Assembly: GCF_053078305.1 (NCBI RefSeq) | Contig: NZ_CP166879.1 | Strand: one strand, 5' to 3' | DNA length: 64,000 nt | In this document: piece after piece, positions 1 to 59,105 of the stretch | Numbering within the stretch: position 1 is the first letter of the stretch | How the letters are laid out: every line of letters begins with the position of its first letter | Program-made: the position numbers and the translations under genes | The notes under the pieces: generated by a model | What the model saw: the letters and a program-made list of their open reading frames with translations, nothing else | What the model was told of the DNA's origin: nothing | The model's database searches: none

Positions 1-834
1 GAACCGGTGGTGGTGCCTCTTTCAGTCCGTGGCAGCAGTACGGTACAACCCGGGGCACCGGTATCCGGGATCCGGTCTGAAGTACCGGAGTGTCAACCGG
101 ATACGGATACAGAGGCGATGCCGGAAAGCACAGTCTCCATATTCCCCGGTACTGAGCGCGAGCAACATGGTATTACCCGGCCACTGAAAGCCGTGTCTGA
201 TACTGACACAGAGCGCACTGAAAAATGCAGTCGACCTTCTCAGGAAGAGAGCGCAGGCAGGGGGGACAGTGGGGCGTCTTCTGCTGAAAATGCCCTGCGT
301 CCTGAGATACAGCCGGATATGTACGGTGGTAAGCCAGTCTTCAGTGGTGATGTTATGGAAGATGGTGCTGCCGGAGCAGTACTGGCATCAGTTATGACAG
401 GAGATACTGCTCCGGGAACCACTGATGCTCTTCCCGCGTCGGTGACGCACTTTGCTGTGGGGCGGGATGATATCGAACATCTGCAGAATGAAGCGTTCCG
501 TCTGGCCTGGGAACTGGCTGAATCAGCCGGTTGTGCTGAAGAGATTGCCATGGACAGGGAAAGCGACCTGTCTGCCGGTTTCGGGGCAACAGTGGAGAAA
601 TGTTCTCCTGTAGTGGCGTTTCTGGCGGGTCTGGCCGGTGATGCACCGCGGACAGTCCTCCCCGTGAGTCTGAAAGACCTGCTTACAGGGGGCAGTGCAC
701 CGGAAGCGTGGCCACTGCTGGATGACGACCATGCCGTGAAGCTGCTGCGTCTTCTGAGTGTGCTGCGCCGCCTGAGAGCCCTGCAGCGCAGTGTATTACC
801 CGACGACGATGAGGGGGATGAGAATGATGAGTGA
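1..834 (+). CDS. hypothetical protein, 5' end probably truncated by window edge
   Basis: Frame 1 is open from position 1 with no upstream stop; ORF track reports 7..834 from the first GTG. Acidic C-terminus. No recognisable motif. Confidence 0.45.
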   Translation, partial: EPVVVPLSVRGSSTVQPGAPVSGIRSEVPECQPDTDTEAMPESTVSIFPGTEREQHGITRPLKAVSDTDTERTEKCSRPSQEESAGRGDSGASSAENALRPEIQPDMYGGKPVFSGDVMEDGAAGAVLASVMTGDTAPGTTDALPASVTHFAVGRDDIEHLQNEAFRLAWELAESAGCAEEIAMDRESDLSAGFGATVEKCSPVVAFLAGLAGDAPRTVLPVSLKDLLTGGSAPEAWPLLDDDHAVKLLRLLSVLRRLRALQRSVLPDDDEGDENDE

Positions 835-1552
835 TATGTCGCATCAGGAACGTCTGATCAGGCGGGTCAGGAAACTGCTGGAGCTGAGCCGTAATAACAG
901 CAATGCCCATGAGGCCGGGCTGGCGCTTGCAAGGGCGCAACAGCTGATGGCGAAACACGGTATCACGGAGCAGGATGCCGGACTTTCTTCGGTGCAGACC
1001 TCTTCATCACAGGGGGCACCTTCTGATGCTGAAAAAGTTCCGGCGTGGATGTTTCGTCTGGTCATGGTGGTGACACAGACATTTGGCTGCCGGGCGTATT
1101 ACGACTGGCGGGCGGTGCCCGGAGGCCGGTATCGCCGGTGTGTGACGTTTTACGGTTTCAGTGAACGTCCTCAGGTGGCGGCTTATGCGTTTGATGTTCT
1201 GTGCCGTCAGCTAAGGGAAGCAACGGATGCGTATCTTCGTACACAGAGCCGGAGACTGAAACTGAGCACCCGTCGTGCCCGGGCGGCTCAGTTTCGTGAT
1301 GGCTGGGTTCAGGGGATTCGTCAGGTGGTGATGCCATTCAGTGTGACAGAAGAGGAAAGTCGGCTGATGCGTCTCTGGATGGAGCAGCAGGATATGGTGA
1401 CGGTGGACTCCCGTGAGATGAAAGCCTGTCGCGGCGGTGACCTGGCCCGCTGGCAGGGGTATGAGGCCGGGAAAAATGCCTCACTGCATCATGGTGTGGG
1501 GGAGAGTGCCCGACAGGTGGTGCCGGGTCTGATGATACGGGAGGCGTCATGA
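824..1552 (+). CDS. hypothetical protein with N-terminal helical domain resembling DUF2786
   Basis: ORF 791..1552; internal ATG at 824 follows a GAGGGGG RBS. N-terminal RKLLELS..NAHEAGLALARAQQLMAKHGI pattern typical of DUF2786-type proteins. Overlaps upstream gene, suggesting coupling. Confidence 0.5.
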   Translation: MMSDMSHQERLIRRVRKLLELSRNNSNAHEAGLALARAQQLMAKHGITEQDAGLSSVQTSSSQGAPSDAEKVPAWMFRLVMVVTQTFGCRAYYDWRAVPGGRYRRCVTFYGFSERPQVAAYAFDVLCRQLREATDAYLRTQSRRLKLSTRRARAAQFRDGWVQGIRQVVMPFSVTEEESRLMRLWMEQQDMVTVDSREMKACRGGDLARWQGYEAGKNASLHHGVGESARQVVPGLMIREAS

Positions 1553-2157
1553 ATAACAGCTTGTCTCAGGCAACCAACGGTCTGCTGATGCAACTGGTGA
1601 TGGACCTCAAGAGCGGCTACCTGCGTCGCTGCGAATCTCTGGGGCTGGCCCGGGAGGAAATGCAGATGCTGCAGGGACTGACCATTGAGGAAATTCATTA
1701 CCTGTCAAACTCTGAAGTGTCGGTTATCCGGCTGGACATTAATCATGAAAACCTGCTGCGTATGCTGCAGCAGGCCCGGACGGAGCAGAAACGTCTGCAG
1801 CGCATTGACCGGGCACTGGCGCTGGGAGGCTCCATTGAACTGATGGCGTTTTACTTTGGACTTTCCAGTGTGGATGTGGCAGCGCGCCGTCGCATTGCCG
1901 GTATTGATGTTCGCCCGGGACGTGGCATCACACTGAGTGATGAGGAAAGTGCAGAGCTGTGGCGTTTATGGCAGAAGAGCGGCATCACAGATGTGGAAAG
2001 TGCGGACGGACTGGATGTCATGATGCTGGCAGCTGAGCAAATGAATATCCCGCTGACGGCGGTATGGCATGCAGTGAGGGGATGGCATCAGGGAACTGCG
2101 GGGTTTAATGATGTATCGGCCAGTCGCCGGAAACTGAACCGGGAAAAAGCAGAATGA
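1549..2157 (+). CDS. hypothetical ICE replication-region protein (possibly STY4526/DUF2857-like)
   Basis: 202-aa ORF with 4-bp overlap to upstream gene, same strand as STY4528-like gene downstream. Family assignment from memory, unverified. Confidence 0.45.
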   Translation: MNNSLSQATNGLLMQLVMDLKSGYLRRCESLGLAREEMQMLQGLTIEEIHYLSNSEVSVIRLDINHENLLRMLQQARTEQKRLQRIDRALALGGSIELMAFYFGLSSVDVAARRRIAGIDVRPGRGITLSDEESAELWRLWQKSGITDVESADGLDVMMLAAEQMNIPLTAVWHAVRGWHQGTAGFNDVSASRRKLNREKAE

Positions 2158-2171
2158 CAAGGACAAATGAC

Positions 2172-2321
2172 ATGGCCGAAATTAACTTTCAGGTACTGCG
2201 GGAGGCTGAACAGGTGAAGCGAGAGAACCAGCCGGTTGAGGCTGGAGCGTGGAAAGATGCCGTTGAGTGGGTGCTCCAGGAGGATTGCCAGGCTGTAAAC
2301 ATTCGCATCAAAGGAGAGTGA
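2172..2321 (+). CDS. small ORF (49 aa) whose C-terminal half duplicates the C-terminus of the 2615..3013 protein
   Basis: ATG 2172 to TGA 2319-2321, translating MAEINFQVLREAEQVKRENQPVEAGAWKDAVEWVLQEDCQAVNIRIKGE. Below the ORF-track size cutoff. About 112 bp of its DNA is a direct repeat of 2900..3013. Confidence 0.3.
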   Translation: MAEINFQVLREAEQVKRENQPVEAGAWKDAVEWVLQEDCQAVNIRIKGE

Positions 2322-2323
2322 AC

Positions 2324-2611
2324 ATGGCTACTTTGCAGGAATTAATCGACCTGACGCCAGAACAGGAAAAAGCGTGGAAGCGCCTTGTGAAGGCTGTAAA
2401 GGATTTCAGGGCAGCCGGAGGAAAGTTTTATAGCGTCCTGGACACGCTGAGTGCATACAACGGCGAGCACGTTGCCAGCATTGATAACGATAAGGGCTAC
2501 CACACTGCAAGAGTCTATATGCCTGGCATTGATGCGCCAGGGCTAACCAGTTGGGCTGATGACTGGCACGGCATCACGCTGAAAGATGGCGTTGAAGTGG
2601 ATGATGACTAA
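2324..2611 (+). CDS. hypothetical protein
   Basis: ORF track 2267..2611; preferred start ATG 2324 (MATLQELIDL) directly after AAAGGAGAG RBS embedded in the upstream stop region. Confidence 0.5.
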   Translation: MATLQELIDLTPEQEKAWKRLVKAVKDFRAAGGKFYSVLDTLSAYNGEHVASIDNDKGYHTARVYMPGIDAPGLTSWADDWHGITLKDGVEVDDD

Positions 2612-2614
2612 CAC

Positions 2615-3013
2615 ATGACCACGATTACCAAAGAGCGACTGCAATGGCTGGCTAACATTTCTGGCCGCGATGACATTGACGATATAGACGGCGGTGAGAT
2701 TCGTGAGCTGGCGCTTATCGCGCTGGCATCGCTGGAAGCAGAGCCTGTGGCGTCATGCATTATTGAAGATGGGGGCATGTGTGTTGACGGGGTCGGTGAG
2801 TATGTAGGTCACTCGCTGCCTGGTGGAACGTACCAGCTATACACCGCTTCACCTGTGCCGGTAGTGCCTGAAGGACTGGTTAAAGCAGTGCGCTTTTATG
2901 AACAGGTAAAGCGTGAGAATCCACCAGTTGAAACTGGGGCATGGAAAGATGCCGTTGAGTGGGTGCTCAAAGAGGCTTGCCAGGCTGTAAATATTCGCAT
3001 CAAAGGAGAGTGA
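2615..3013 (+). CDS. hypothetical protein
   Basis: 132-aa ORF, tightly packed with neighbours; C-terminus ...AWKDAVEWVLKEACQAVNIRIKGE is duplicated at 2172..2321. Confidence 0.5.
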   Translation: MTTITKERLQWLANISGRDDIDDIDGGEIRELALIALASLEAEPVASCIIEDGGMCVDGVGEYVGHSLPGGTYQLYTASPVPVVPEGLVKAVRFYEQVKRENPPVETGAWKDAVEWVLKEACQAVNIRIKGE

Positions 3014-3015
3014 GC

Positions 3016-3507
3016 GTGCAGATTTCACCAGTCACTCTTCGTGTTGCGAAGGCGTTTATATCCAGACATCACCGACACAATAAACCTCCGGTGGTGCATA
3101 AATTCAGTATTGGTCTGAGAAATGATGCGGGTGAATTGACAGGTGTGGCGACAGCCGGCAGACCTGTTGCACGCCACTTTGACGATGGGCTGACACTGGA
3201 GGTCAATCGTACCTGTACTACTGGTGAACGTAACGCTAACAGCGCACTTTATGGCGCTGTCTGGAGGGCGGCAAAAGATATGGGCTATCGCCGTTGCATT
3301 ACATACACCAGGGCTGATGAATCCGGGGCCTCTCTTCGGGCAGATGGTTTTGTTCGTGTGAAAGAACTTCCTTCAGGAAAAAGCTGGGCAGAATCAAGTG
3401 TCGCCCTGAAGAGTACACGCGATCCGGTTGGAAGCGGTGGTGTTCCTCGTGTGCTCCGGGAAATCAGGAGAATGAGCACTACTGTCATTCACATCAAAGG
3501 GGAATGA
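3016..3507 (+). CDS. hypothetical protein
   Basis: ORF track 2959..3507; preferred GTG start at 3016 after AAAGGAGAG RBS. Ends with ...IHIKGE, the same junction motif as the two upstream genes. Confidence 0.5.
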   Translation: MQISPVTLRVAKAFISRHHRHNKPPVVHKFSIGLRNDAGELTGVATAGRPVARHFDDGLTLEVNRTCTTGERNANSALYGAVWRAAKDMGYRRCITYTRADESGASLRADGFVRVKELPSGKSWAESSVALKSTRDPVGSGGVPRVLREIRRMSTTVIHIKGE

Positions 3508-3510
3508 GAT

Positions 3511-3978
3511 ATGGCTATTGCAGAGAGAATGGGTATCTCCTCGCGCGGCGATACTTACGAAATCTGGTTGGGAGCAAACTGTTATCACTACCGCTCTGAT
3601 GGTTATGCAGTGCTTCTGAAAGAAGGCAGGAATCGTGCTTATCCATGTCGGGTGACGAGTGAAACGATTAAATCTGCGCTGGCAGCAATTGTTGAATTGC
3701 AACAGAAATTAACTGCGGCAGAGAAGAAAAAGGAGTGTGAGAACCACGGGGTTCTTTTGCCAGCTGAGATGTTAATTCGCTGTCTGGAAGATCAAACAGG
3801 GGGACGGTGGATCCGTGCACATGAACCAGTAATGCTGATGAAACGATTAATCAGTAACCTGAAAAAAGCCAGACCAGAATGTACCGTTCCTGATGAAGCG
3901 CTGGCATATCTCCGGCGTAACTGTCTGGTGAATATGGGCGATATACCCGTTACCAGCAGACGGATGTCTGACGTATAA
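3511..3978 (+). CDS. hypothetical protein
   Basis: 155-aa ORF starting 3 bp after upstream stop; RBS AAAGGGGAA upstream. Confidence 0.5.
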   Translation: MAIAERMGISSRGDTYEIWLGANCYHYRSDGYAVLLKEGRNRAYPCRVTSETIKSALAAIVELQQKLTAAEKKKECENHGVLLPAEMLIRCLEDQTGGRWIRAHEPVMLMKRLISNLKKARPECTVPDEALAYLRRNCLVNMGDIPVTSRRMSDV

Positions 3979-3995
3979 CAAAAAGGAAAAGTGTA

Positions 3996-4571
3996 ATGAC
4001 ATTACCCGTAGACAGCCTGATTGCGTACACGCTGGAAAAAATGCAAGAGCGGATAGTGCAGAAAGGCCGACAACAGGACGGAAAAATACAAAGCGGACTG
4101 CTGTTTACCGGAAATGTGCATGATGCCATTCCGCGTCGACTGCTTCTGGATACTCGACTTTCTCCGCTGGATAAGATGGCGTGGATGATGATTCGGCTGT
4201 ATGCACAGAATAATGAAGGTGCAGTTTTCCCCACATATGACGAACTGCAACTGCAGCTTGCTTCCCCGGGGAAAGGAAAAGCCTCCAGGGAGACTGTCAG
4301 CCGGGTGCTGCTGATGCTGCGGATCACGGGCTGGCTGAGTCTGTGCAAACGGGTGCGTGATGAGAAAGGGCGGGTACGGGGCAATATTTATGCCCAGCAC
4401 GATGAACCGGTGACGTGCCGGGATGCTGAAATACTGGATCCACGTTATCTGGATATGGTGGCAGATGCCTGTATGAGCCGGAACCGGACCATAAGTCAGA
4501 CGGCCCGGGATATTCTGTGCGAAATAAAAAATGATCCGGGGATGCGTCATTATCACAGCCATATCAGTTAA
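3996..4571 (+). CDS. STY4528-family pathogenicity-island replication protein-like (putative winged-helix DNA-binding)
   Basis: 191-aa ORF; recognised by similarity of sequence pattern and position to the SPI-7 STY4528 family. Followed immediately by a palindromic motif array. Confidence 0.5.
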   Translation: MTLPVDSLIAYTLEKMQERIVQKGRQQDGKIQSGLLFTGNVHDAIPRRLLLDTRLSPLDKMAWMMIRLYAQNNEGAVFPTYDELQLQLASPGKGKASRETVSRVLLMLRITGWLSLCKRVRDEKGRVRGNIYAQHDEPVTCRDAEILDPRYLDMVADACMSRNRTISQTARDILCEIKNDPGMRHYHSHIS

Positions 4572-4650
4572 CTGGAAGCCCGGATAGGGAGTGCCCAGAC
4601 ACCGGGACAGATGGCGGCCCGTCAGCGGGTGACTGAGGACCGAATGCAGC

Positions 4651-4862
4651 CGGGTTCGGAAACCGAACCGGGGGTAGAAACACAGAGTTCGGTATTGAAA
4701 ATGCTGAGTTCGGATTCCGAACTCAGTGAAAAACAGGGGCAAAAAATACTGAGTTCGGATTCCGAACCATCAGAAAAATCAGAAGGTTATCACAGAGTTC
4801 GGAAACCGAACCATTACGTACGTAATATCACACACAGTGTGATTAAAAACACGTACGTATTG
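4651..4862. promoter_or_regulatory. array of palindromic GTTCGGA(A/T)(A/T)CCGAAC motifs plus adjacent perfect palindromes; candidate operator/origin
   Basis: Palindromes at about 4654-4668, 4706-4724, 4751-4768, 4795-4812, a half-site near 4685-4692, then TTACGTACGTAA (4814-4825) and ATCACACACAGTGTGAT (4827-4843). Lies between the STY4528-like gene and the RBS-supported start at 4905. Confidence 0.45.
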
Positions 4863-4904
4863 CCTGAAGCGCTGACAGGGCAAATCAGGGAGGAGGAGGC
4901 CATT

Positions 4905-5240
4905 ATGCTGACCAGTCAGTTGCAGGCGCTGCCGGAAGAACTGGCGCAGGGGGTTCTGGAAAGTCTGTCAGGGATGCTGGGCAGCCACTCGCTGCAGAAT
5001 CCTGTGGGCTGGTTGCTTGCAGTGCTGAAGCGAGCCCGGGAGGGAAATTTTTATCCGCCGAAGCAGAAACAACGTGTTGTTGTGCCAGCCTCCGTACTGG
5101 CAGGAGAAAGGGGGCGAGCTACTGCGCAATCAGTTTCATCGGGGAAACGTACGGAACCGATTTCAGCAGAACGTCTGAGTGGCATTGTGGCTGGATTACG
5201 GGCCTCGCTGCGCAGATGTTCTGCGATGAGACCTGAGTGA
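4905..5240 (+). CDS. hypothetical protein
   Basis: ORF track 4611..5240; the internal ATG at 4905 follows a very strong GGGAGGAGGAGG RBS, and the upstream part of the ORF is filled with palindromic repeats, so I take that part as non-coding. Confidence 0.45.
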   Translation: MLTSQLQALPEELAQGVLESLSGMLGSHSLQNPVGWLLAVLKRAREGNFYPPKQKQRVVVPASVLAGERGRATAQSVSSGKRTEPISAERLSGIVAGLRASLRRCSAMRPE

Positions 5241-5339
5241 TTGCGATACGGGCTATGTTCGCGGGAATAAAAATCAACCAGTGCCGCCAGCGACTGGTTA
5301 AAAAGAAAACAGAATCGGGAACTGGTCAGGTGAAACAAG

Positions 5340-5582
5340 GTGGTAAATAGCATGCAGAAATACAAACAGGAAAGTCTGAGTGCAGCCATGAAAGAAAGTG
5401 GCCTGTTGATCGCTAAAATTTGTGCCTGCGTGATTGCCGGAGTGGTGGTTATCTGGGGACTGGTGACAGGCACAGAGACCCTGCTCACTGCGCTGAAAAC
5501 AATGCACGAACAGTACGATAACAGTATGTGTTATATCGTATGTGCCACAGGGTGGTTTTTCCTGGTGTTAAGTAACTGGCTG
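5340..5582 (+). pseudogene. N-terminal fragment of a membrane-protein gene interrupted by IS66-family insertion
   Basis: GTG 5340 ORF reads into the IS end at 5583. The same frame resumes exactly after the target-site duplication at 8104 and continues to 8352. Confidence 0.6.
5575..5582. repeat. left 8-bp target-site duplication (ACTGGCTG) of IS66-family element
   Basis: ACTGGCTG immediately left of the IS end matches ACTGGCTG at 8096-8103 immediately right of the other end. Confidence 0.8.
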
Positions 5583-5612
5583 GTAAGCGTCAACGGAGCA
5601 CCGTATTGACGC

Positions 5613-7205
5613 TTATTTATTGGTGAGTACTACGTTCCATGGCAAGAGTTCATCAACTCGGTTGGAAGGCCATTCCGGCAGTACGCTCAGGATATGGCGC
5701 AGATACGCTTCCGGATCGATACCGTTCAGACGGCAGGTGCCGATCAGCCCGTACAACAGTGCTCCACGCTCGCCGCCGTGATCGCTGCCAAAGAACATAA
5801 AGTTTTTCTTTCCGAGACAGACTGCACGAAGCGCTCTTTCCGCAGCATTATTATCCGCCTCCGCCAGACCGTCATCACTGTAATAACAGAGGGCATCCCA
5901 CTGATTCAGTACATAGCTGAACGCTTCGCCCAGTCTGGATTTTTTCGACAGCGTACCATTCTTCTCCACCATCCATTCATGCAGCGACGTCAGTAACACT
6001 TTGCTTCGCTGCTGCCTGACGGAAAGACGCTCTGACTCCGGTAATCCCCGTATTTCATCCTCGATGGCGTACAGTTCACTGATTCGCTTCAGGGCTTCTT
6101 CTGCCTTCGCACTTTTGCTGCTGATGTATACATCGTGGATTTTTCGCCGGGCATGGGCCCAGCACGCAACTTCTGTCAGTGCACCACCTTCACGTTCTGC
6201 ACTGAACAACCTGTCGTAACCTGTGAACGCATCCGCCTGCAGGATACCCCGGAAGGGGCGGAGGTGTTGCTCCGGGTGTTTCCCCTGCCGGTTCGGCGAG
6301 TACGCGAACCAGACCGCTGGAGGAGATGACGAACCCACATTGCGATCATCCCGGACATACGTCCAGATACGCCCTGTTTTCGCCTTTTTCTGACCCGGTG
6401 CCAGTACCTTTACCGGTGTGTCATCAGTGTGAACCTTGCGGGTGTTCATTACATAACGGTACAGGGCATCATTCACCGGTGTCATTAACTGGCAGCACGC
6501 GTCAACCCAGTTGGAGAGTAAGGCCCGGCTCAGTTCGACACCCTTGCGGGCAAAGATTTCACTCTGACGATACAGTGGCAGATGTTCGCAGTATTTTCCC
6601 GTTAACACGCGGGCAAGTAATCCGGGGCCCGCGATACCACGCTCTATCGGGCGGGACGGCGCCGGTGCTTCAACGATGCAGTCACATTTTGTACAGGCTT
6701 TTTTTACCCGTTCTGTGCGGATCACTTTCAGGGCGCTGCTCACCAGTTCCAGTTGTTCTGCACTGACTTCCCCCAGATAATCCAGCTCACCGCCACACTC
6801 CGGGCAACAGCTTTCTTCAGACTCCAGACGGTGTATTTCACGGGGAAGGTGTGCCGGTAACGGACGACGATGGCGCGACTGTCGCAACTGGCGGGGAACC
6901 TGTGGATCGTCTTCCCGCCCACTGTAACGATCGCTGTCCTGTTCGCGTTGTTTCAGCAGGGCCTCAGCCTGTTCAACTTCACGACGCAGTTTTTCAGAAC
7001 GGGTACCGAACAGCATCCGGCGCAGTTTTTCTATCTGAGCCCGCAGATGTTCTATTTCCCGTTCATCTTCTTCGATCTTTTCTTCGGCACGTGCCAGTGC
7101 AGAGCGCAGGAAGGCCTCCGTCTCTTCAACCAGACTCAGTTGCTGGTCTTTCTGACGGAGCTGGCTTTCCAGTTCTGCAATGCGAATGAGGTATTTCTGA
7201 CTCAT
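5613..7205 (-). CDS. tnpC: IS66-family transposase (TnpC / Orf3)
   Basis: 530-aa ORF with N-terminal leucine-zipper-like coiled coil, CPECGGE zinc-finger motif and the conserved IS66 transposase core. Confidence 0.9.
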   Translation of the reverse strand: MSQKYLIRIAELESQLRQKDQQLSLVEETEAFLRSALARAEEKIEEDEREIEHLRAQIEKLRRMLFGTRSEKLRREVEQAEALLKQREQDSDRYSGREDDPQVPRQLRQSRHRRPLPAHLPREIHRLESEESCCPECGGELDYLGEVSAEQLELVSSALKVIRTERVKKACTKCDCIVEAPAPSRPIERGIAGPGLLARVLTGKYCEHLPLYRQSEIFARKGVELSRALLSNWVDACCQLMTPVNDALYRYVMNTRKVHTDDTPVKVLAPGQKKAKTGRIWTYVRDDRNVGSSSPPAVWFAYSPNRQGKHPEQHLRPFRGILQADAFTGYDRLFSAEREGGALTEVACWAHARRKIHDVYISSKSAKAEEALKRISELYAIEDEIRGLPESERLSVRQQRSKVLLTSLHEWMVEKNGTLSKKSRLGEAFSYVLNQWDALCYYSDDGLAEADNNAAERALRAVCLGKKNFMFFGSDHGGERGALLYGLIGTCRLNGIDPEAYLRHILSVLPEWPSNRVDELLPWNVVLTNK

Positions 7206-7235
7206 GACCGTTTTTATAATGCGGTCAGGATTTTT

Positions 7236-7586
7236 TTACAACATTGTCAGTGAGTTACGGCGGGATGTTTTTGGCTGACGCCAGTCCAGCTTATCGAGGA
7301 GCATTGCCAGTTGCGAGCGGGTAATGGATACCTTGCCGTCACGTACCGCAGGCCAGATAAACTGGCCTTCCTCCAGGCGTTTAGTGAACAGGCACAGACC
7401 ATCAGCATCAGCCCAAAGAATTTTAACGGTGTCACCCCGTCGGCCACGGAAGATAAACAGGTGACCGGAGAAGGGATTATCATTCAGCACATGTTGTACC
7501 TGTTCTCCCAGTCCGTTGAAGGATTTACGCATATCGGTAACGCCGGCAACGAGCCAGATACGGGTACCTGATGGGAGTGAGATCAT
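7236..7586 (-). CDS. tnpB: IS66-family accessory protein TnpB (Orf2)
   Basis: 116-aa ORF typical of IS66 Orf2, 4-bp overlap with tnpA. Confidence 0.85.
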   Translation of the reverse strand: MISLPSGTRIWLVAGVTDMRKSFNGLGEQVQHVLNDNPFSGHLFIFRGRRGDTVKILWADADGLCLFTKRLEEGQFIWPAVRDGKVSITRSQLAMLLDKLDWRQPKTSRRNSLTML

Positions 7587-8008
7587 CTTCCCCTCCCGGT
7601 CAGTTCACGGATCAACACCGTGAGCAGCTCTGGCGATGGATTTTCCAGCGTCATGTTACCGTGACGGAATTCCACCTTGCAGGAGCTGGCACTGACTCTG
7701 GTCTGAGAGGTAGTGGATAAAGATGGCGCAATGGCCACCACAGGTTCTTTCTGCTCATCCGGCGTTATTTCTACAGGTAATAATTCAACGCCAGTGTCAG
7801 AAGAGGTCGTTACCGGAAGACGCCGCGAAACACGCCCTTCGTTCTGCCAGAGCCTGAGCCATTTGAACAGGAGGTTATCATTGATATCGTGTTCCCGGGC
7901 GATACGGGCAACAGAGGCTCCTGGTTGCAAAGCCAGTTTAACCATTTGAAGTTTAAAATTATTTGAAAATGATCTGCGGGGTTCTGCGGATAATGTTTTT
8001 TGCTCCAT
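7583..8008 (-). CDS. tnpA: IS66-family TnpA (Orf1), helix-turn-helix protein
   Basis: 141-aa ORF at the 5' end of the IS66 operon; N-terminal HTH-like region. Confidence 0.8.
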   Translation of the reverse strand: MEQKTLSAEPRRSFSNNFKLQMVKLALQPGASVARIAREHDINDNLLFKWLRLWQNEGRVSRRLPVTTSSDTGVELLPVEITPDEQKEPVVAIAPSLSTTSQTRVSASSCKVEFRHGNMTLENPSPELLTVLIRELTGRGR

Positions 8009-8095
8009 AACAGGCGTCCACTAGTTTGAAAAGGTGGGCACCTACGTTACCAATACTGGCTTAATGGCTACATACGGCAGTCGGTTTACGCTTAC

Positions 8096-8103
8096 ACTGG
8101 CTG
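8096..8103. repeat. right 8-bp target-site duplication (ACTGGCTG) of IS66-family element
   Basis: Identical to 5575-5582. Confidence 0.8.
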
Positions 8104-8352
8104 TGGATCACATACAGTCTTTATAAAGCGCGTACAGGCAGTACAGTCGGAGGGGGCCTGCAATTTATGCTCCTCCTGAGTCTGCTGGCAGAATGCTTTT
8201 CATTTTTTGTGATTTTCTGGTCATTGTCTCATCTGGATATAACCGACATTCAGTTGCTCGTGATGGGGATAACAACATTAATGCTGTTTTTGTCTCTGAA
8301 CGTTAAGGTAGTAGTCATCATTAACCATGTTGCCAGTGGCAACAGTGATTAA
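8104..8352 (+). pseudogene. C-terminal fragment of the IS66-interrupted membrane-protein gene
   Basis: In frame with 5340..5582 once the IS and one TSD copy are removed; hydrophobic sequence (ORF track 8167..8352 is its tail). Its 3' end runs into the first unit of the tandem palindrome array. Confidence 0.5.
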
Positions 8353-9120
8353 AAAGCGAGCGGTGTTGCCAGTGGCAACAGAGTACAGAAAATAGTCAAT
8401 GGTGCCAGTGGCACCAGAGTACAAAAAATACTCAATGGTGCCAGTGGCACCATAGTATAAAAAATAGCCAATGGTGCCAGTGGTACCAGAGTACAAAAAA
8501 TAGCCAATGGTGCCAGTGGCACCAGAGTACAAAAAATAGCCAATGGTGCCAGTGGCACCATAGTATAAAAAATAGCCAATGGTGCCAGTGGCACCAGAGT
8601 ACAAAAAATAGCCAATGGTGCCAGTGGCACCAGAGTACAAAAAATAGCCAATGGTGCCAGTGGCACCATAGTATAAAAAATAGCCAATGGTGCCAGTGGC
8701 ACCAGAGTACAAAAAATAGCCAATGGTGCCAGTGGCACCATAGTATAAAAAATAGCCAATGGTGCCAGTGGCACCAGAGTACAAAAAATAGCCAATGGTG
8801 CCAGTGGCACCATAGTATAAAAAATAGCCAATGGTGCCAGTGGCAACAGAGTACAGAAAATAGTCAATGGTGCCAGTGGCACCAGAGTACAAAAAATAGT
8901 CAATGGTGCCAGTGGCACCATAGTATAAAAAATAGCCAATGGTGCCAGTGGCAGCAGAGGTTAAAAAGCGAACAGTGCAGCCAGTGGCAGCAGAGGTTAA
9001 AAAGTGAACAGTGCTGCCAGTGGCAGCAGAGATTAAAAAATGAGCAGTGCTGCCAGTGGCAACAGAGGTTAAAAAGTGAGCGGTGTTGCCAGTGGCAACA
9101 GCGATTAAAAAATAAGCGGC
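8329..9120. repeat. tandem array of about 22 units of 36-37 bp, each with a 15-bp palindrome G(G/T/C)TGCCAGTGGCA(C/A/G)C; candidate centromere-like or iteron array
   Basis: Central about 16 units near-identical, alternating two variants (72-bp higher-order period). Flanking units diverged, with GTTGCCAGTGGCAAC and GCTGCCAGTGGCAGC cores. Confidence 0.85.
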
Positions 9121-9216
9121 GTTAAATGTATATTCTGCCTGATTTGTTTTTTTGTTGTCGGTAATACGCAACCTGCGGACTATCTTCTGGTCATGAAATC
9201 ATTCGGAGTAAACACA

Positions 9217-9921
9217 ATGCCCCAGGAGAAAACCGGAGAAGTCAGAAAATCAGAACAAGTTGGTGCTCTGCAGTCATCGCTGACTATTGCCCTTCATACC
9301 CGATATGCGATCCGTCTCTGGGAGGGACGCAGGAATAATCAGAAGGAAGAAAAACAGGAAAAGCGGCCTGACATCATCAGTATGCCCAGGGCTATTGCGT
9401 TTGCGGGTCAGGCAACCAGAGATTCAGCCAGGGATAATCCTTATGCAGATATGATGTTAGTCAGGCTGGAAAATGCCCTGACGAAGGCAACTGAAACAAT
9501 TGAAAAGCATCTTGCGTGGCTTGACGGGATCCTTAAAAACCTGCCGGGACAGATCTCCCTTTCTGATATTAAATCCTCTTCGCCGGTAAATATTGGCGTG
9601 TACAGTAGTTCTCCGGTCGGTTATCGATGTGTATGGCTTCTGATCGGATATGATCGACTGGTCATGAAGGTATTTCAGGTATTTCATTACGGACTTATTT
9701 CCCGCACAAAACGGGATGAGTTGCTGAATCAGGGAGGGTATGCGGTACGCAGGATTTACGGGATTATTCAAAATTATAAATCAGTCAGTGTTACACGTGC
9801 TGATATTTTGTCCGGCACAGCCCGTGGAAAGGAGGCGGTTAACCGCATGGGGGAGCCGGATCCTGACGTGATGAGCGGTAAGAAACGTTCTGTTTATTCA
9901 CCACCGGTTAAAGCGGGGTGA
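9217..9921 (+). CDS. hypothetical ICE backbone protein
   Basis: ORF track 9193..9921; ATG 9217 preceded by GGAG RBS. 4-bp overlap with topB. Confidence 0.5.
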   Translation: MPQEKTGEVRKSEQVGALQSSLTIALHTRYAIRLWEGRRNNQKEEKQEKRPDIISMPRAIAFAGQATRDSARDNPYADMMLVRLENALTKATETIEKHLAWLDGILKNLPGQISLSDIKSSSPVNIGVYSSSPVGYRCVWLLIGYDRLVMKVFQVFHYGLISRTKRDELLNQGGYAVRRIYGIIQNYKSVSVTRADILSGTARGKEAVNRMGEPDPDVMSGKKRSVYSPPVKAG

Positions 9922-9923
9922 GT

Positions 9924-11966
9924 ATGCAACTCTTTCTGTGTGAAAAACCTTCTCAGGCGAAAGATATCGCCCGTGAACTGGCGCTCAGTAAGCGGGGCGA
10001 CGGATACATCGGAGATGACAATATTGCTGTCACCTGGGCGATAGGACACCTGCTGGAACTGGCTGAGCCGGAAGCTTACGGTGAACAGTTCGGTTCCCCA
10101 TGGCGTTCTGATGTGTTGCCGCTGATACCGGAACAATGGCAGATGGTGGTGAAGCCGAAGGTGAAAAAACAACTTATTGTGATCCGGGGGCTGTTAAAAC
10201 GCGCTTCTGAAGTGGTTATTGCCACAGATGCCGATCGTGAAGGAGAAGTGATAGCCAGAGAGTTGCTGGAGTACTGTCAGTACAGAGGGCGTGTCAGGCG
10301 TCTGTGGTTATCTGCACTGGATGAGGCCAGTATCAGGAAGGCGCTGAATAATATTCTCCCGGGCGAACAGACTGCGCTTCTCAGTGAAGCCGGTAAGGGG
10401 CGTGCCCGGGCTGACTGGCTGACAGGGATGAATCTGACCCGGTTGTATACCCTGAAGGCACGGGAACGTGGAATTTCTGGGGTTTTGTCAGTGGGCCGGG
10501 TGCAGACACCCACGCTGGCAATGGTGGTCAGACGGGATCAGGAGATCGCCACATTTGTGCCGGTTTCCTGGTGGCAGGTGATTGTCTGGCTGGAAAAGGA
10601 GGGGCTCCGTTTCCGCAGTAACTGGGTGGCAGCTGAGCAGTACTGCGATGATGAGGGACGTTGTGTGAATGTGCAGGCGGCCGGTGCTGTTCTCGGTCTG
10701 TGCCGTCAGCAGTCCTCTGCTGTTGTACAGGATGTTGTACAGAAGAGGGAGAAAACACCGCCACCTTTGTGTTTTTCGCTGGGAACGTTGCAGGACGCCT
10801 GTTCCCGGAAGTTTGGCATGGGGGCTCAGACCGTTCTGGATATCGCACAGTCCCTTTATGAGACTCACAAAGCAACAACTTATCCCAGGACAGACTGTGG
10901 TTATCTGCCTGCCTCGATGCATGAGGAGAGTTCTGAAGTGCTTGAGGCTGTCGGGCGTTCAGATCCGTCCGTGCTTCCACAACTGGCTGAACTGGAATCA
11001 GGACGGGTATCCCGTATCTGGAATGATAAAAAAATTACGGCTCACCATGCCATTATTCCGACCCGGCAGTTTTTTGACCTCAGCTTACTGAACGGTGATG
11101 AACTGAAGGTATATCAACTGATTCGTCAGCACTATCTGGCACAGTTTCTGCCGGAGCAGGAAGCCGATGTTACTGAGGCAACATTTGTGATTGGGGGGCA
11201 GTTATTCCGTTCCCGCGGAAGAGTGAATGTGATTATCGGGTGGAAACAGTTATTTCCACCGGAAAATCATGCAGATGAAGAAAAGCCTGACAGTGATGAA
11301 AGTGGAAACATATTGCCCCCTTTGATAAAGGGAGAACTCTGTGCTCTGGATGGTGCTGAACAGAAGGAGCTGAAAACCGTACCTCCCCGTCCTTTTACTG
11401 AAGGCAGTCTTATTACTGCGATGAAGAATGCTTCGTCTGGTGTAACGGATCCGGTGCTGAAAAAGATCCTGAGGGATAATGCGGGACTGGGAACGGAAGC
11501 CACACGCGCGGGGATCCTGGAAACGTTATTTGCGCGCAACTATATTGAGAGAGCGGGAAAACATATCCGTTCCACGCAACTGGGAAGAGAACTGGTGGCG
11601 GCATTGCCGGACTCTCTGACAAATCCGGGTATGACGGCTTTATGGGAACAGGCGCTGGATGATGTTGCCCGGGGGAAAATCTCACTGGAGGCGTTTATGG
11701 AGAAACAGCATCAGTGGATCAGGCACCTGGTGTTATCCGGACGTAACCAGACGGTTAATCTGTCAGTGGAATCAGGTCCTTCATGTCCACTCTGTAACGG
11801 TCCGACGGTGAAACGGAAGGGAAAAAGCGGTTTTTTCTGGGGATGCTCCCGTTATCCCGACTGCAGGGGAATTGCTGGTGAGCAGGGAAACAGCAGGGGC
11901 AGGAAAAGAAAAATTAATTTTTCTCATAAACAAAAATCTGGTGATGTCGGAGACAAACTGAATTAA
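9924..11966 (+). CDS. topB: DNA topoisomerase III
   Basis: MQLFLCEKPSQA start typical of TopB, Toprim and topoisomerase IA core, C-terminal zinc ribbon CPLCNGP...CSRYPDC. Standard ICE backbone gene. Confidence 0.9.
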   Translation: MQLFLCEKPSQAKDIARELALSKRGDGYIGDDNIAVTWAIGHLLELAEPEAYGEQFGSPWRSDVLPLIPEQWQMVVKPKVKKQLIVIRGLLKRASEVVIATDADREGEVIARELLEYCQYRGRVRRLWLSALDEASIRKALNNILPGEQTALLSEAGKGRARADWLTGMNLTRLYTLKARERGISGVLSVGRVQTPTLAMVVRRDQEIATFVPVSWWQVIVWLEKEGLRFRSNWVAAEQYCDDEGRCVNVQAAGAVLGLCRQQSSAVVQDVVQKREKTPPPLCFSLGTLQDACSRKFGMGAQTVLDIAQSLYETHKATTYPRTDCGYLPASMHEESSEVLEAVGRSDPSVLPQLAELESGRVSRIWNDKKITAHHAIIPTRQFFDLSLLNGDELKVYQLIRQHYLAQFLPEQEADVTEATFVIGGQLFRSRGRVNVIIGWKQLFPPENHADEEKPDSDESGNILPPLIKGELCALDGAEQKELKTVPPRPFTEGSLITAMKNASSGVTDPVLKKILRDNAGLGTEATRAGILETLFARNYIERAGKHIRSTQLGRELVAALPDSLTNPGMTALWEQALDDVARGKISLEAFMEKQHQWIRHLVLSGRNQTVNLSVESGPSCPLCNGPTVKRKGKSGFFWGCSRYPDCRGIAGEQGNSRGRKRKINFSHKQKSGDVGDKLN

Positions 11967-12148
11967 AATTGCGGGCGAGTTCTGGTATCACCCTGTTGAC
12001 CACAGTGGGGCTGACAGCCCTGAGAGGTCCGGTAACCCGTTATGCACACGGCGGGGTTACAAGGCACATGCACTCCGTGAAAACCGTGCCGGGAGTCGCT
12101 CTCTCCGGAGAAGATGAGAATCAACACCGGGATTTGGTATCCCCCTGA

Positions 12149-12176
12149 AGCACCGGCTTGCCGGTGCTTTTTTGTT
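12149..12176 (+). terminator. rho-independent terminator downstream of topB
   Basis: GC-rich stem AGCACCGGC-TTG-GCCGGTGCT followed by T tract. Confidence 0.6.
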
Positions 12177-12232
12177 TTTGGTTAGCTGTTGACTTTTTCC
12201 ATCAGTGATTTCAGTCTGTCCGGGCACATAAC

Positions 12233-12528
12233 GTCGCTCCGGCGACCACCAATGCTCCACAAGTGGCCTGAGAGGAGCGCCTTCGGGTGGCTACATGTCG
12301 CTTCGGCGACCACCAATGCTCCATAAGTGGTCTGAGAGGAGCGCCTTCGGGTGACCACATCCCGCTTCGGTGGGCACCAATGTTCCGTTGATCTGAGAGG
12401 AACGCCTTCGGGTGATCAACACCCCCGTAACCTGAAAGGGGATGTGCAGCCAGGATGTTTCTGGTGGTGGTAAATCTGCCCACCTTTGAGAGCAGATATC
12501 GTCAGTCATGACGATGAAGGTTTTCTTT
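12233..12528 (+). repeat. structured repeat element, copy 1 (three about 60-nt sub-units plus tail); candidate ncRNA
   Basis: Repeated hairpins with CTTCGG tetraloop motifs (GTCGC-TTCG-GCGAC etc.) and recurring CTGAGAGGA motifs. Near-identical to copies at 56604-56840 and 58871-59105. Confidence 0.5.
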
Positions 12529-12644
12529 AACTGTTACTGAGTCAGCCGGAATAGTTCTGTTCCGGCTCCCTGACGGGAATATCACAACCCGTCAGGGATG
12601 ATGATGTTCTCTGTCTTTCCGATACTGAGAATGGAGATATCATT

Positions 12645-13112
12645 ATGACTGCAAATACTTCTTCTGCAAACGCTAAAACTGAGTACTTCAATCTGACACT
12701 GAAAGGCCTGGGGTATCTCAGCAACATTCGTCAGGTTAATCATCAGAACGGGACATTTCTCAGTTGTGTTGTGAATGCACTGAGTGGTCCGACGGACAGC
12801 CCGTCCTATGTGCGTTTTGATGTGACGGTTGCCGGTAAAGAGGCAACTTCCCTGATTGCCCGCTGCCAGAAAGCGGTGGATGAAGATCGCAAGGTGCTGA
12901 TTGGTTTTACCATGAGCAACCCCTCTACTGACATTTTTACCCTTAACCGGGGTGAACATGCCGGTGAGCAACGCGTCAGTCTGAAAGCCCGCCTGATCAA
13001 GGTGGAGTGGATCAAAATAGGCCAGGACATGGTTTATAAGACTGAAAAATCGGAATCCATACCGCCACAGAATGGCAATACCCCGCGGGAATACGCAGAA
13101 AATTCTTTCTGA
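12645..13112 (+). CDS. conserved hypothetical ICE protein
   Basis: 155-aa ORF with upstream AT-rich leader and hairpins; followed by a terminator. Confidence 0.55.
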   Translation: MTANTSSANAKTEYFNLTLKGLGYLSNIRQVNHQNGTFLSCVVNALSGPTDSPSYVRFDVTVAGKEATSLIARCQKAVDEDRKVLIGFTMSNPSTDIFTLNRGEHAGEQRVSLKARLIKVEWIKIGQDMVYKTEKSESIPPQNGNTPREYAENSF

Positions 13113-56444: not shown

Positions 56445-56603
56445 TTATCTCAGAATAAACATTGATGAATGGTAATAACAGGGACTGTTAATACTGTCCC
56501 TGTTATTTTTTCTGCAGACTGTTTTCTGTTCTTCCTGGTTATGTTCTGAGTGATGATGATTGACGCCTTTTATACGCTCTGATATGCTCAGAATGCATTA
56601 TCT

Positions 56604-56840
56604 GTCGCTTCGGCGACCACCAATGCTCCATAAGTGGTCTGAGAGGAGCGCCTTCGGGTGGCCACATCCCGCTTCGGTGGGCACCAATGTTCCGTTGATC
56701 TGAGAGGAACGCCTTCGGGTGATCAACACCCCCGTAACCTGAAAGGGGATGTGCAGCCAGGATGTTTCTGGTGGTGGTAAATCTGCCCACCTTTGAGAGC
56801 AGATATCGTCAGTCATGATGATGAAGGTTTCTTTTAACCG
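56604..56840 (+). repeat. structured repeat element, copy 2; left direct repeat flanking the recombinase module
   Basis: Near-identical to 58871-59105 and to the last two sub-units plus tail of 12233-12528; the similarity continues about 20 bp past the element. Confidence 0.55.
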
Positions 56841-57467
56841 CGCCCTTTATTACGGGCAATACACAGCAGTGGTTGTGTGATCCTTATCTATCCGGTGATG
56901 CCGGAATGTTTTTACTGCGTAATGGCGGTATTGACTTCTTTTATTCTTTTCATTTGTTTGCCAGCACTTCCTGCGACTGTGCGCGCTGTATAAGACCATT
57001 TGAAATTTGGTCGCTTACGCGTGTACCTGGCGTCTGAAGCTGCGCGGCGTCACTTTCGTCAGCGTGTCACGATGACAAAGTGACGCACGCGCGTCTGCTT
57101 AACGAACCCGCACGAACTGCCGTTTCACGTGATGTTTTTTAACATTTGAAGAAGTGACCCGGCGTGAGAGTGTTTTTTCAACCTCTTCTGCAAATTTACG
57201 GACGATTTTGTGAATAACGTCCATAAATGGTTTTTTGCAGAATTAATTGTTTTTTAAGGAGTTTTATGTAGTGAGATGCCGAATCGGCGATACCACTTAT
57301 TAGAGGTGGTGTCGGGGGCGACCTGGAGACAGGTACAGCAAATGCTGCAGTCGGTGTGCAACACCGATTTGTTACCCCTCAATACCTAAACAATCTGCGC
57401 TACCCTGGCGCACAGGCAGTCACTACCCGAAGGATCGCAACGTTTAACCGTGTCGTCAGGGAGAAAT

Positions 57468-58826: not shown

Positions 58827-58870
58827 CTTGACATTCATCTTTTGTGATTTAAAAATATACAGGCTTATAT

Positions 58871-59105
58871 GTCGCTTCGGCGACCACCAATGCTCCATAA
58901 GTGGTCTGAGAGGAGCGCCTTCGGGTGACCACATCCCGCTTCGGTGGGCACCAATGTTCCGTTGATCTGAGAGGAACGCCTTCGGGTGATCAACACCCCC
59001 GTAACCTGAAAGGGGATGTGCAGCCAGGATGTTTCTGGTGGTGGTAAATCTGCCCACCTTTGAGAGCAGATATCGTCAGTCATGACGATGAAGGTTTCTT
59101 TATAA
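58871..59105 (+). repeat. structured repeat element, copy 3; right direct repeat flanking the recombinase module
   Basis: Near-identical to 56604-56840. Confidence 0.55.

Follow-up and report, generated by a model that had tools for sequence, protein, structure and literature searches.

The STAXI motif (RF01728) was described by Weinberg et al. (2010; PMC2864571) and provides a close comparison for the RNA reported here, which follows topB in an integrating conjugative element (ICE). The two share Enterobacterales hosts, the same ICE module (with Ssb and a topoisomerase), the same strand and the presence of pseudoknots, but STAXI is a tandem repeat of a ~55-nt pseudoknot unit whereas the new RNA is a single, non-repetitive fold of ~200 nt. 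EFASI (RF02957), which is probably a trans-acting sRNA, is likewise an ICE-associated enterobacterial RNA found near STAXI, although it lies downstream of STAXI and upstream of integrases, and the EFASI model has no match in the new RNA. Small RNAs of the DapZ/MicL type belong to 3′ UTRs and are transcribed from a promoter of their own that lies within, or at the end of, the preceding coding sequence; they are short, Hfq-dependent and act by seed pairing. The new RNA is like them in that its candidate −10 element in the window (the whole 64 000-nt stretch of DNA that was analysed) lies on the topB stop codon and its terminator is common to the upstream mRNA, but it differs in having a double-pseudoknotted fold of 200–245 nt that persists where the upstream gene is missing, and a scan of the window found no target for it. 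PesA of the ICE PAPI-1 (PMC5493400) is also an ICE-encoded sRNA of the same broad family, ~260 nt long and ending at an intrinsic terminator, but it is a processed product encoded downstream of pilM2 in Pseudomonas; the loci are unrelated and PesA was rejected as a counterpart for that reason.

Transcripts from two published studies are also relevant here. Strand-specific RNA-seq of Pectobacterium atrosepticum SCRI1043 detected a 228-nt transcript (601635–601862) next to topB, with a predicted −10 element at 601643 and a predicted terminator end at 601875, and, separate from it, a further transcript downstream for which a promoter was also predicted (PMC4710047); the 228-nt transcript was filed as ‘3′ UTR: topB’ and loosely labelled STAXI. 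In Salmonella Typhi, StyR-381 is a 73-nt cDNA from SPI-7 that has a terminator, is co-oriented with its neighbours and is constitutive (PMC2943607).

Genomic context of the RNA

The region that carries the RNA is part of an SPI-7/PFGI-1-type ICE in Escherichia coli, and the features of the locus are collected in Table 1. A sequence-only reading had flagged 11967–12176 as a structured region with no ORF, lying between topB and a strong terminator, and this placement was right to ~10 nt, as the covariance model described below matches 11973–12179 (+ strand) with 133.9 bits (E-value 2e-36) and finds no other copy in the window. The RNA element has a G+C content of 57 %. In each of the 16 loci tested STAXI lies 3′ of the new RNA in the same orientation, and the STAXI model has no match to 11967–12176 even at E <= 10. 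The module also has the SPI-7-type DnaB and ParB.

The ‘PFL_4669 family ICE protein’ encoded 5′ of topB matches Pfam AcaB (PF08900, E-value 2e-81). AcaB is a transcriptional activator of IncC plasmid conjugation, and the match suggests that a putative regulator stands at the head of the topB module. One E. coli record, NZ_CP075640.1, has a 100 % match to the RNA element and is in register with the window only at ~9–14 kb, position-by-position identity being at chance level at 1–9000 and 14000–64000; the ICE is thus out of register or mosaic relative to that record, the annotation of which was used only for the ~9–14 kb in register.

Table 1. Features of the topB–DUF3577 region, other known RNAs in the window and cargo in related ICEs (positions are those of the window unless a locus is named)
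Feature	Position	Strand	Description
AcaB-family (PFL_4669) gene	9193–9921
topB	9918–11966		Stop codon TAA at 11964–11966
Candidate −10 element TAAAAT	11964–11969	+	Overlaps the topB stop codon; inferred transcription start ~11976
topB–DUF3577 gap			680 nt, of which the flagged segment is the first 210 nt
RNA	11976–12179	+	~200 nt here, 215–245 nt in most relatives; from covariance-model match, nhmmer homologues and covariation
Pa 5′ strand UUCUG	11980–11984	+	GCUUUG in most relatives; pairs with CGGAG 12106–12110 and closes the multi-helix core
PK1 5′ strand ACC	11990–11992	+	GUACC-type in relatives; pairs with P6 loop at 12136–12138
P1	11991–12009	+	CCCUG 11991–11995 with CAG-U-GGG 12003–12009; loop holds P1b 5′ strand GACC 11998–12001
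P2 hairpin GGGGC-UGACA-GCCCU	12007–12021	+	Short form
P1b 3′ strand GGUC	12026–12029	+	Pairs with GACC 11998–12001; ends 2 nt before P3
P3 long hairpin GUAACCCG / CGGGGUUAC	12032–12060	+	Loop contains GCACAC
P4 hairpin GGCAC / GUGCC	12063–12090	+	18-nt loop with near-invariant CUCCGUGAAAACC at 12073–12085 (CUCCGUGAAAAYC)
P5 hairpin GGGAG / CUCUC	12091–12105	+	4/4 pairs covary; 95 % of cells pair
CGGAG	12106–12110	+	Invariant; Pa 3′ strand, complementary also to CUCCG of P4 loop
Linker AAGAUGAGAAUCAACACC	12111–12128	+	Conserved; drawn single-stranded
P6 hairpin	12129–12143	+	Loop UUGGU (CUGGUAC in relatives) is the PK1 3′ strand
Intrinsic terminator	12147–12179	+	Stem GAAGCACCGG/CCGGUGCUUU (12147–12170), loop CUUG, U-run
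STAXI promoter	12189–12194 (−35)		−35 TTGACT; −10 degenerate TCAGTC (TAAAAA, TAAAGA, TAAATA in relatives)
STAXI array	12226–12525	+	Three tandem units from near 12226, of which the Rfam match covers only 12360–12525
STAXI (RF01728) match	12360–12525	+	76.2 bits (gathering score 40.5)
DUF3577 5′ UTR	12568–12647		Two conserved hairpins
Second DUF3577 5′ UTR hairpin	12598–12647		UGUUCUCUGU with GAAUGGAGAUA; MFE −36.5 kcal/mol, z = −4.5
DUF3577 ‘STY4534 family ICE replication protein’ gene	12645–13112		Followed 3′ by a 67-aa ORF, then ssb, then an Rpn-family gene
Further STAXI copies	56603–56768 and 58870–59035	+	90.9 and 93.6 bits; no new RNA upstream
EFASI RNA	57268–57425	+	53.2 bits; no new RNA upstream
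Cargo in terminator–STAXI promoter gap, L010	7269–8387		DUF3800 gene
Cargo in terminator–STAXI promoter gap, L058			Two small ORFs on the opposite strand, ~1 kb
Cargo in terminator–STAXI promoter gap, L085	1180–3500		~2 kb, AT-rich stretch and 3D-domain gene

Homologues and distribution

Diverged ICEs in complete E. coli genomes are 70–77 % identical to the window over 11990–12258, and the C-terminal tail of topB is unalignable among them; compensatory changes in several hairpins are already visible in a three-way alignment. The productive search route was a DNA-pattern scan of metagenomes with the invariant core AAGNCNCNNNNNCTCCGTGAAAANCGNG, which returned 63 loci, 60 of them full-length homologues by nhmmer. 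A scan of genome contigs with DUF3577 peptide patterns, which proved too narrow, found only 3 loci. A covariance model (R1) was then available from a MAFFT alignment of 24 diverse copies, and it gives one match per locus. Sequences outside its training set score 72–151 bits (Dickeya, Salmonella, Pectobacterium, Serratia and Escherichia sp. E4742, with the Serratia rubidaea copy at 78 bits), and the divergent copy of Escherichia sp. E4742, which was missed by nhmmer, is found by the model.

The named genomes that carry the RNA include those of E. coli, Superficieibacter, Mixta, Pantoea, Salmonella enterica, Dickeya, Serratia rubidaea, P. atrosepticum and Escherichia sp. E4742. Exact-protein look-ups assign every deep metagenomic lineage for which a named relative exists to the Enterobacterales (Pantoea, Klebsiella, Enterobacter, Raoultella, Citrobacter, Erwinia, Cedecea, Dryocola and Scandinavium), and the L069 type is known from a compost metagenome only. 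The covariance model finds no copy in a Xenorhabdus ICE or in two high-G+C DUF3577 loci, and since the RNA is missing from some ICEs of the family it is dispensable for core functions of the elements. In the Xenorhabdus sp. ICE (L076/L077, 3186–3500) only 315 nt separate topB from the DUF3577 gene; the promoter and, by eye, a STAXI-like sequence are kept there, and neither nhmmer nor model R1 has a match to the RNA. A blastn search of a plasmid collection in distant mode gave no match to the element, and a repeat search of the window revealed no second copy.

None of the 4227 models in Rfam 15 is a family for this RNA, and the window copy has no credible match to any of them even at E <= 10; the only matches, at chance level, fall on the terminator region (asX2, for instance, scores 23.7 bits, its cutoff being 70). 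A full-length relative (L062) likewise gives chance-level matches only, and among 16 related loci the gathering score is reached only by STAXI and one tRNA. No description of the element was found in the searchable literature, queries for topB- and ICE-associated structured RNAs having returned nothing relevant. The element defines a new RNA family, of a kind that is already familiar, and its structure is solid.

Comparative evidence for a pseudoknotted structure

The several stems predicted from the single sequence do not by themselves distinguish it from random sequence: its minimum free energy is −75.8 kcal/mol against −73.2 ± 4.7 kcal/mol for shuffles (z = −0.55 for the + strand and −1.59 for the − strand). 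Since this fold is no better than chance, the case for structure is comparative, and it is across the homologues that the stems are established. In the MAFFT alignment of 24 sequences (A4), 93.3 % of cells in the helices pair, against 37–45 % when the partners are slid, and 26 of 40 pairs change on both sides, a value that none of 500 shuffles reached. The covariance-model alignment of 53 distinct sequences (A6) gives 94.1 % against 38–45 %, although the percentage paired is inflated by fitting to the nested helices of the model. Conservation and covariation in related ICEs, which had been proposed as a check from the sequence alone, are thus both seen: in A6, double-sided changes occur at 35 of 44 pairs (437 cells), a value that again no shuffle among 500 matched.

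The order of elements from 5′ to 3′ is Pa 5′ strand, PK1 5′ strand, P1/P1b, P3, P4, P5, CGGAG, linker, P6 and terminator. The long-range helix PK1, which joins the segment just 5′ of P1 to the loop of P6, was left out of the covariance model and so provides an independent check. Four of its five pairs change on both sides, one position being U-A in 24 sequences and C-G in 19, and the variants include GUACC/GGUAC, AUACC/GGUAU, GUGCC/GGCAC, GCACC/GGUGC, CACACC/GGUGUG and CGCAUC/GAUGCG. In the window PK1 has 3 bp in register, and an out-of-register alternative of 5–6 bp pairs GGUAUC (11984–11989) with 12136–12141.

A second pseudoknot is formed by P1 and P1b. All four P1b pairs covary on A6, and in a swap test helices of at least 5 bp were found in 52 % of matched pairs of strands and in 2.8 % of swapped pairs. 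P1 was left out of the tool-based pair count because its register varies; per-sequence helix finding recovers it as CCCG/CGGG, CCGC/GCGG, CCUCG/CGAGG and CCCGC/GCGGG. The strand order, the covariation and swap test of P1b and the variants of P1 together identify an H-type pseudoknot, which on the evidence of the swap test and helix finding supersedes the plain P1 hairpin that we had drawn. Hairpin P2 sits in the third loop of this pseudoknot, and in relatives it is a hairpin of 33–40 nt, often with the loop UUUAACGGG.

All nine pairs of P3 change on both sides, with up to six pair types per position and 96 % of cells paired, and AAG joins P3 to P4, in which 99.6 % of cells pair and three pairs covary. 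The P4 loop is invariant in all pattern-derived copies; in Escherichia sp. E4742 CUCCGUGA alone is kept, and in S. rubidaea the sequence aligned at this position is CCUUGUGAAAAGC, which is without CUCCG. In Pa 98 % of cells pair and U/C changes occur only opposite G, double-sided covariation being impossible because the 3′ strand is invariant. CGGAG may use either Pa or the P4 loop as its partner, since both are invariant. The L069-type relatives have a GNRA-capped hairpin in place of the linker. P6 covaries at all four pairs (94.5 % of cells paired) and the terminator at seven of eight (97.9 %). The strong intrinsic terminator expected from the sequence alone is borne out in the window, where a terminator scan finds a 10-bp stem with six G-C pairs followed by TTTTGTTTTTG. 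This hairpin with its U-tail is the only visible feature that would fit an Hfq- or ProQ-dependent sRNA.

Across the helices G·U cells outnumber A·C cells by 106 to 13, which shows the + strand to be the folded strand, and GNRA loops are found in lineage-specific hairpins and in terminators. We are confident that the element encodes a genuine RNA with a conserved structure. The copy in the window is reduced in form, having a short P2 and few in-register PK1 pairs; its score is the lowest among the E. coli types and it may be partly decayed.

Two other structures were considered and set aside. The motifs GAUGAG and GAAA had prompted a comparison with the hammerhead ribozyme, the core of which is CUGAUGA ... 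GAAA flanked by three helices, but no conserved CU precedes GAUGA (AAGAUGAG, CAAGUGAG and GUAAUGAA are found), the core motif is missing in the L069 type and there is no Rfam hammerhead match. A small 5′ hairpin around GCUUUGAUG was rejected as well, as its register differs among lineages.

Candidate promoter and probable transcription unit

In every lineage a TAnnnT hexamer, usually following TGn, lies 6–7 nt before the conserved 5′ end GCUUUGAUG, and the freedom with which its three middle positions vary is characteristic of extended −10 promoters. The candidate in the window is without TG or a −35 element, is spaced 9 nt from GUUCUGGUA (which corresponds to the family GCUUUGAUG after realignment) and was not called by a simple promoter scan. 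We had at one stage read the window copy as being without the 5′ strand and the ‘TTCTGcTAatGT’ box as possible RNA sequence, and abandoned this when realignment showed that the box behaves as a −10 element.

In ICEs of the L010 and L037 types the RNA lies directly 3′ of an AcaB-family gene, with no topB there. Since the RNA is kept without topB and has its own candidate −10 box, it appears to be an independent RNA gene and not only the 3′ UTR of topB, and we consider it probable that it constitutes an independent transcription unit. The sequence-only suggestion of a 3′-UTR-derived RNA is not the reading that fits best. Read-through from topB must nevertheless end at the same terminator, and for this reason the window copy may also contribute a 3′ UTR to topB. 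On the downstream side, a conserved promoter of the TTGACA-N17-TAAAAA type lies between the terminator of the RNA and STAXI, and the gap between that terminator and this promoter is a recurrent insertion point for cargo (Table 1), so that the RNA is separated from STAXI as well.

RNA-seq had been named as a further check, and a transcript of matching geometry does exist in P. atrosepticum (PMC4710047), the link being one of geometry between different strains. In another P. atrosepticum strain the covariance model matches 2676–2909 of locus L082, where the topB stop is at 2654, and this arrangement fits the SCRI1043 transcript, which on its geometry may be a homologue. A second non-coding element of ~200 nt with its own terminator is found at L082 2915–3135 in P. 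atrosepticum, where it separates the RNA from the STAXI promoter; the window has no such element, which is probably the published transcript reg_seq34b (601860–602087). StyR-381 of S. Typhi may be the 3′ part of a homologue of the RNA.

Possible functions and alternative explanations

The explanation that on balance we favour for the locus as a whole is a stand-alone gene for a conserved structured RNA, which has its own promoter and serves as a trans-acting scaffold. The pattern of conservation suggests that transcription would start from the −10 or extended −10 promoter, with the GCUUUGAUG block as the 5′ end, that the terminator would end both the RNA and any read-through from acaB–topB, and that STAXI–DUF3577–ssb would be transcribed separately from the TTGACA-N17-TAAAAA-type promoter. 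The weakest step is that the RNA would act in trans as a folded molecule. Its pseudoknotted core could act as a scaffold on which the P4 loop (CUCCGUGAAAAYC) is displayed together with the invariant CGGAG; the partner would come from the DNA-processing module and would be either a protein (DUF3577, SSB or TopB) or the Shine–Dalgarno/anti-Shine–Dalgarno hairpin of the DUF3577 mRNA, which uses nearly the same two sequences as the RNA, UCUCCGUCA and AUGGAGAA. With two pseudoknots and a near-invariant exposed loop the RNA looks shape-recognized, unlike a simple seed-pairing sRNA or a cis leader, although this scaffold mechanism, taken separately, is put forward tentatively. The earlier suggestion of a regulatory RNA of the ICE thus stands as far as a conserved, covarying, structured + strand RNA specific to SPI-7-type ICEs is concerned, its regulatory role being a candidate one only.

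In the DUF3577 mRNA the conserved hairpin of UUCUCCGU and AUGGAGAA conceals the Shine–Dalgarno sequence and the start codon, and the RNA has a near-copy of each half: the P4-loop sequence CUCCGUG complements CAUGGAG, and CGGAGAA complements UUCUCCG. These pairings are of 6–7 bp only and were noticed post hoc, and the mRNA hairpin exists also where the RNA is absent. The near-copies could reflect control in trans of DUF3577–ssb translation, or a factor that binds both RNAs. When the window was scanned for complementarity to the invariant loop or to the linker, nothing outstanding emerged, the best target duplexes being ~−24 kcal/mol, ~4 sd over ~12 800 windows per strand. The same anti-Shine–Dalgarno/Shine–Dalgarno arrangement is seen in the Xenorhabdus locus and in high-G+C (61–64 %) DUF3577 loci. 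A search of PDB sequences with a DUF3577 profile gave no match.

That the element is simply the 3′ UTR of topB, with any sRNA processed from the topB mRNA, is a reading we consider unlikely, even though the element starts within ~10 nt of the topB stop codon, the terminator is shared with topB read-through, the window promoter is weak by consensus, the P. atrosepticum transcript was filed under topB, and PesA of PAPI-1 shows that an ICE sRNA can arise by processing (PMC5493400). Against these points stand the conservation of the −10 box at a fixed spacing in all lineages, the ICEs in which the RNA directly follows an AcaB-family gene, and a 5′ block that is fixed and conserved while the 3′ end of topB and its stop-proximal sequence cannot be aligned. 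A cis leader, that is a riboswitch or attenuator gating read-through into STAXI–DUF3577–ssb, would account for a complex conserved fold with invariant unpaired nucleotides that stands immediately before a terminator, beyond which lies a conserved, co-oriented operon. Such leaders have no promoter before the gene that they control and have a pairing that competes with the terminator, but here a conserved sigma-70-type promoter intervenes between terminator and STAXI, cargo genes have been inserted into that gap in several lineages, and no conserved antiterminator alternative is visible by eye in the alignments, so that we regard a cis leader as highly improbable.

A base-pairing regulator of DUF3577–ssb, in which CUCCGUG would repress by binding CAUGGAG or CGGAGAA would activate by binding the anti-Shine–Dalgarno sequence UUCUCCG, has in its favour a 7-bp complementarity in most lineages between two highly conserved partners, the strong stability of the hairpin around the start codon (Table 1), and a loop on a 5-bp stem that is like an antisense loop. 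We nevertheless think it distinctly unlikely: the complementarity falls to 6 bp in the window and to 5 bp in loci L035 and L018, it was noticed after the fact with one candidate examined and its site is not top-ranked in the duplex scan, conservation of the mRNA hairpin is just as high in loci that lack the RNA, and a double-pseudoknotted scaffold of 200 nt far exceeds what a seed needs. The chance is slight that the structure acts instead as single-stranded DNA in conjugative transfer or replication, for example as a priming signal or single-stranded promoter. The position among DNA-processing genes (topB, ssb, DUF3577 and the genes for SPI-7-type DnaB and ParB) is consistent with such a role, and the idea was raised for STAXI by Weinberg et al. 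(PMC2864571), but the element has a promoter upstream and an intrinsic terminator with a U-run at its 3′ end, its helices contain 106 G·U cells, which would be poorly tolerated as G·T, GNRA tetraloops are present, and an RNA of matching geometry has been detected in vivo in P. atrosepticum. As for a small protein, mechanical ORFs do overlap the segment (59 aa on the + strand, 54 and 67 aa on the −), many homologues have long stop-free stretches on the − strand, and the P. atrosepticum annotation has, at the equivalent place, an ORF (ECA0527) antisense to the transcript. However, the absence of an ORF noted from the sequence alone is upheld by the comparison, as none of these ORFs is conserved and no anchored frame stays open among 43 distinct homologues (minimum 12–25 codons on the − strand and 2–19 on the +); a recurring peptide is limited to the stretch over the invariant core and the peptides are unrelated elsewhere, indels are not multiples of three, and the substitutions in helices are compensatory. 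A coding function on either strand has, in our judgement, practically no chance of being correct.

Implications for SPI-7-type elements

Beyond the scaffold gene that we prefer, the RNA might be the first of a new class of ICE RNAs with complex folds, one that binds a ligand or protein or acts as a catalyst within the AcaB–TopB–RNA–STAXI–DUF3577–SSB module. This bolder proposal is in our opinion unlikely; under it the RNA could, for example, join DUF3577, SSB or TopB in a ribonucleoprotein, or could mimic the Shine–Dalgarno/anti-Shine–Dalgarno switch of the DUF3577 mRNA, and if it were true an RNA of the new class would set the timing of replication or transfer of SPI-7-type elements.

At present annotation pipelines either report nothing in the region or predict spurious ORFs on its antisense strand, and the family gains a covariance model and a defined architecture. 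The ICEs concerned spread cargo for virulence and resistance between E. coli, Salmonella, Klebsiella, Pectobacterium and related bacteria, and little is understood of how they are regulated. In nearly every locus examined, the Xenorhabdus ICE being the exception, a second structured RNA with good support is placed directly 5′ of STAXI and of a translationally locked DUF3577–ssb operon, which points to a layer of RNA in the DNA-processing module of these elements.
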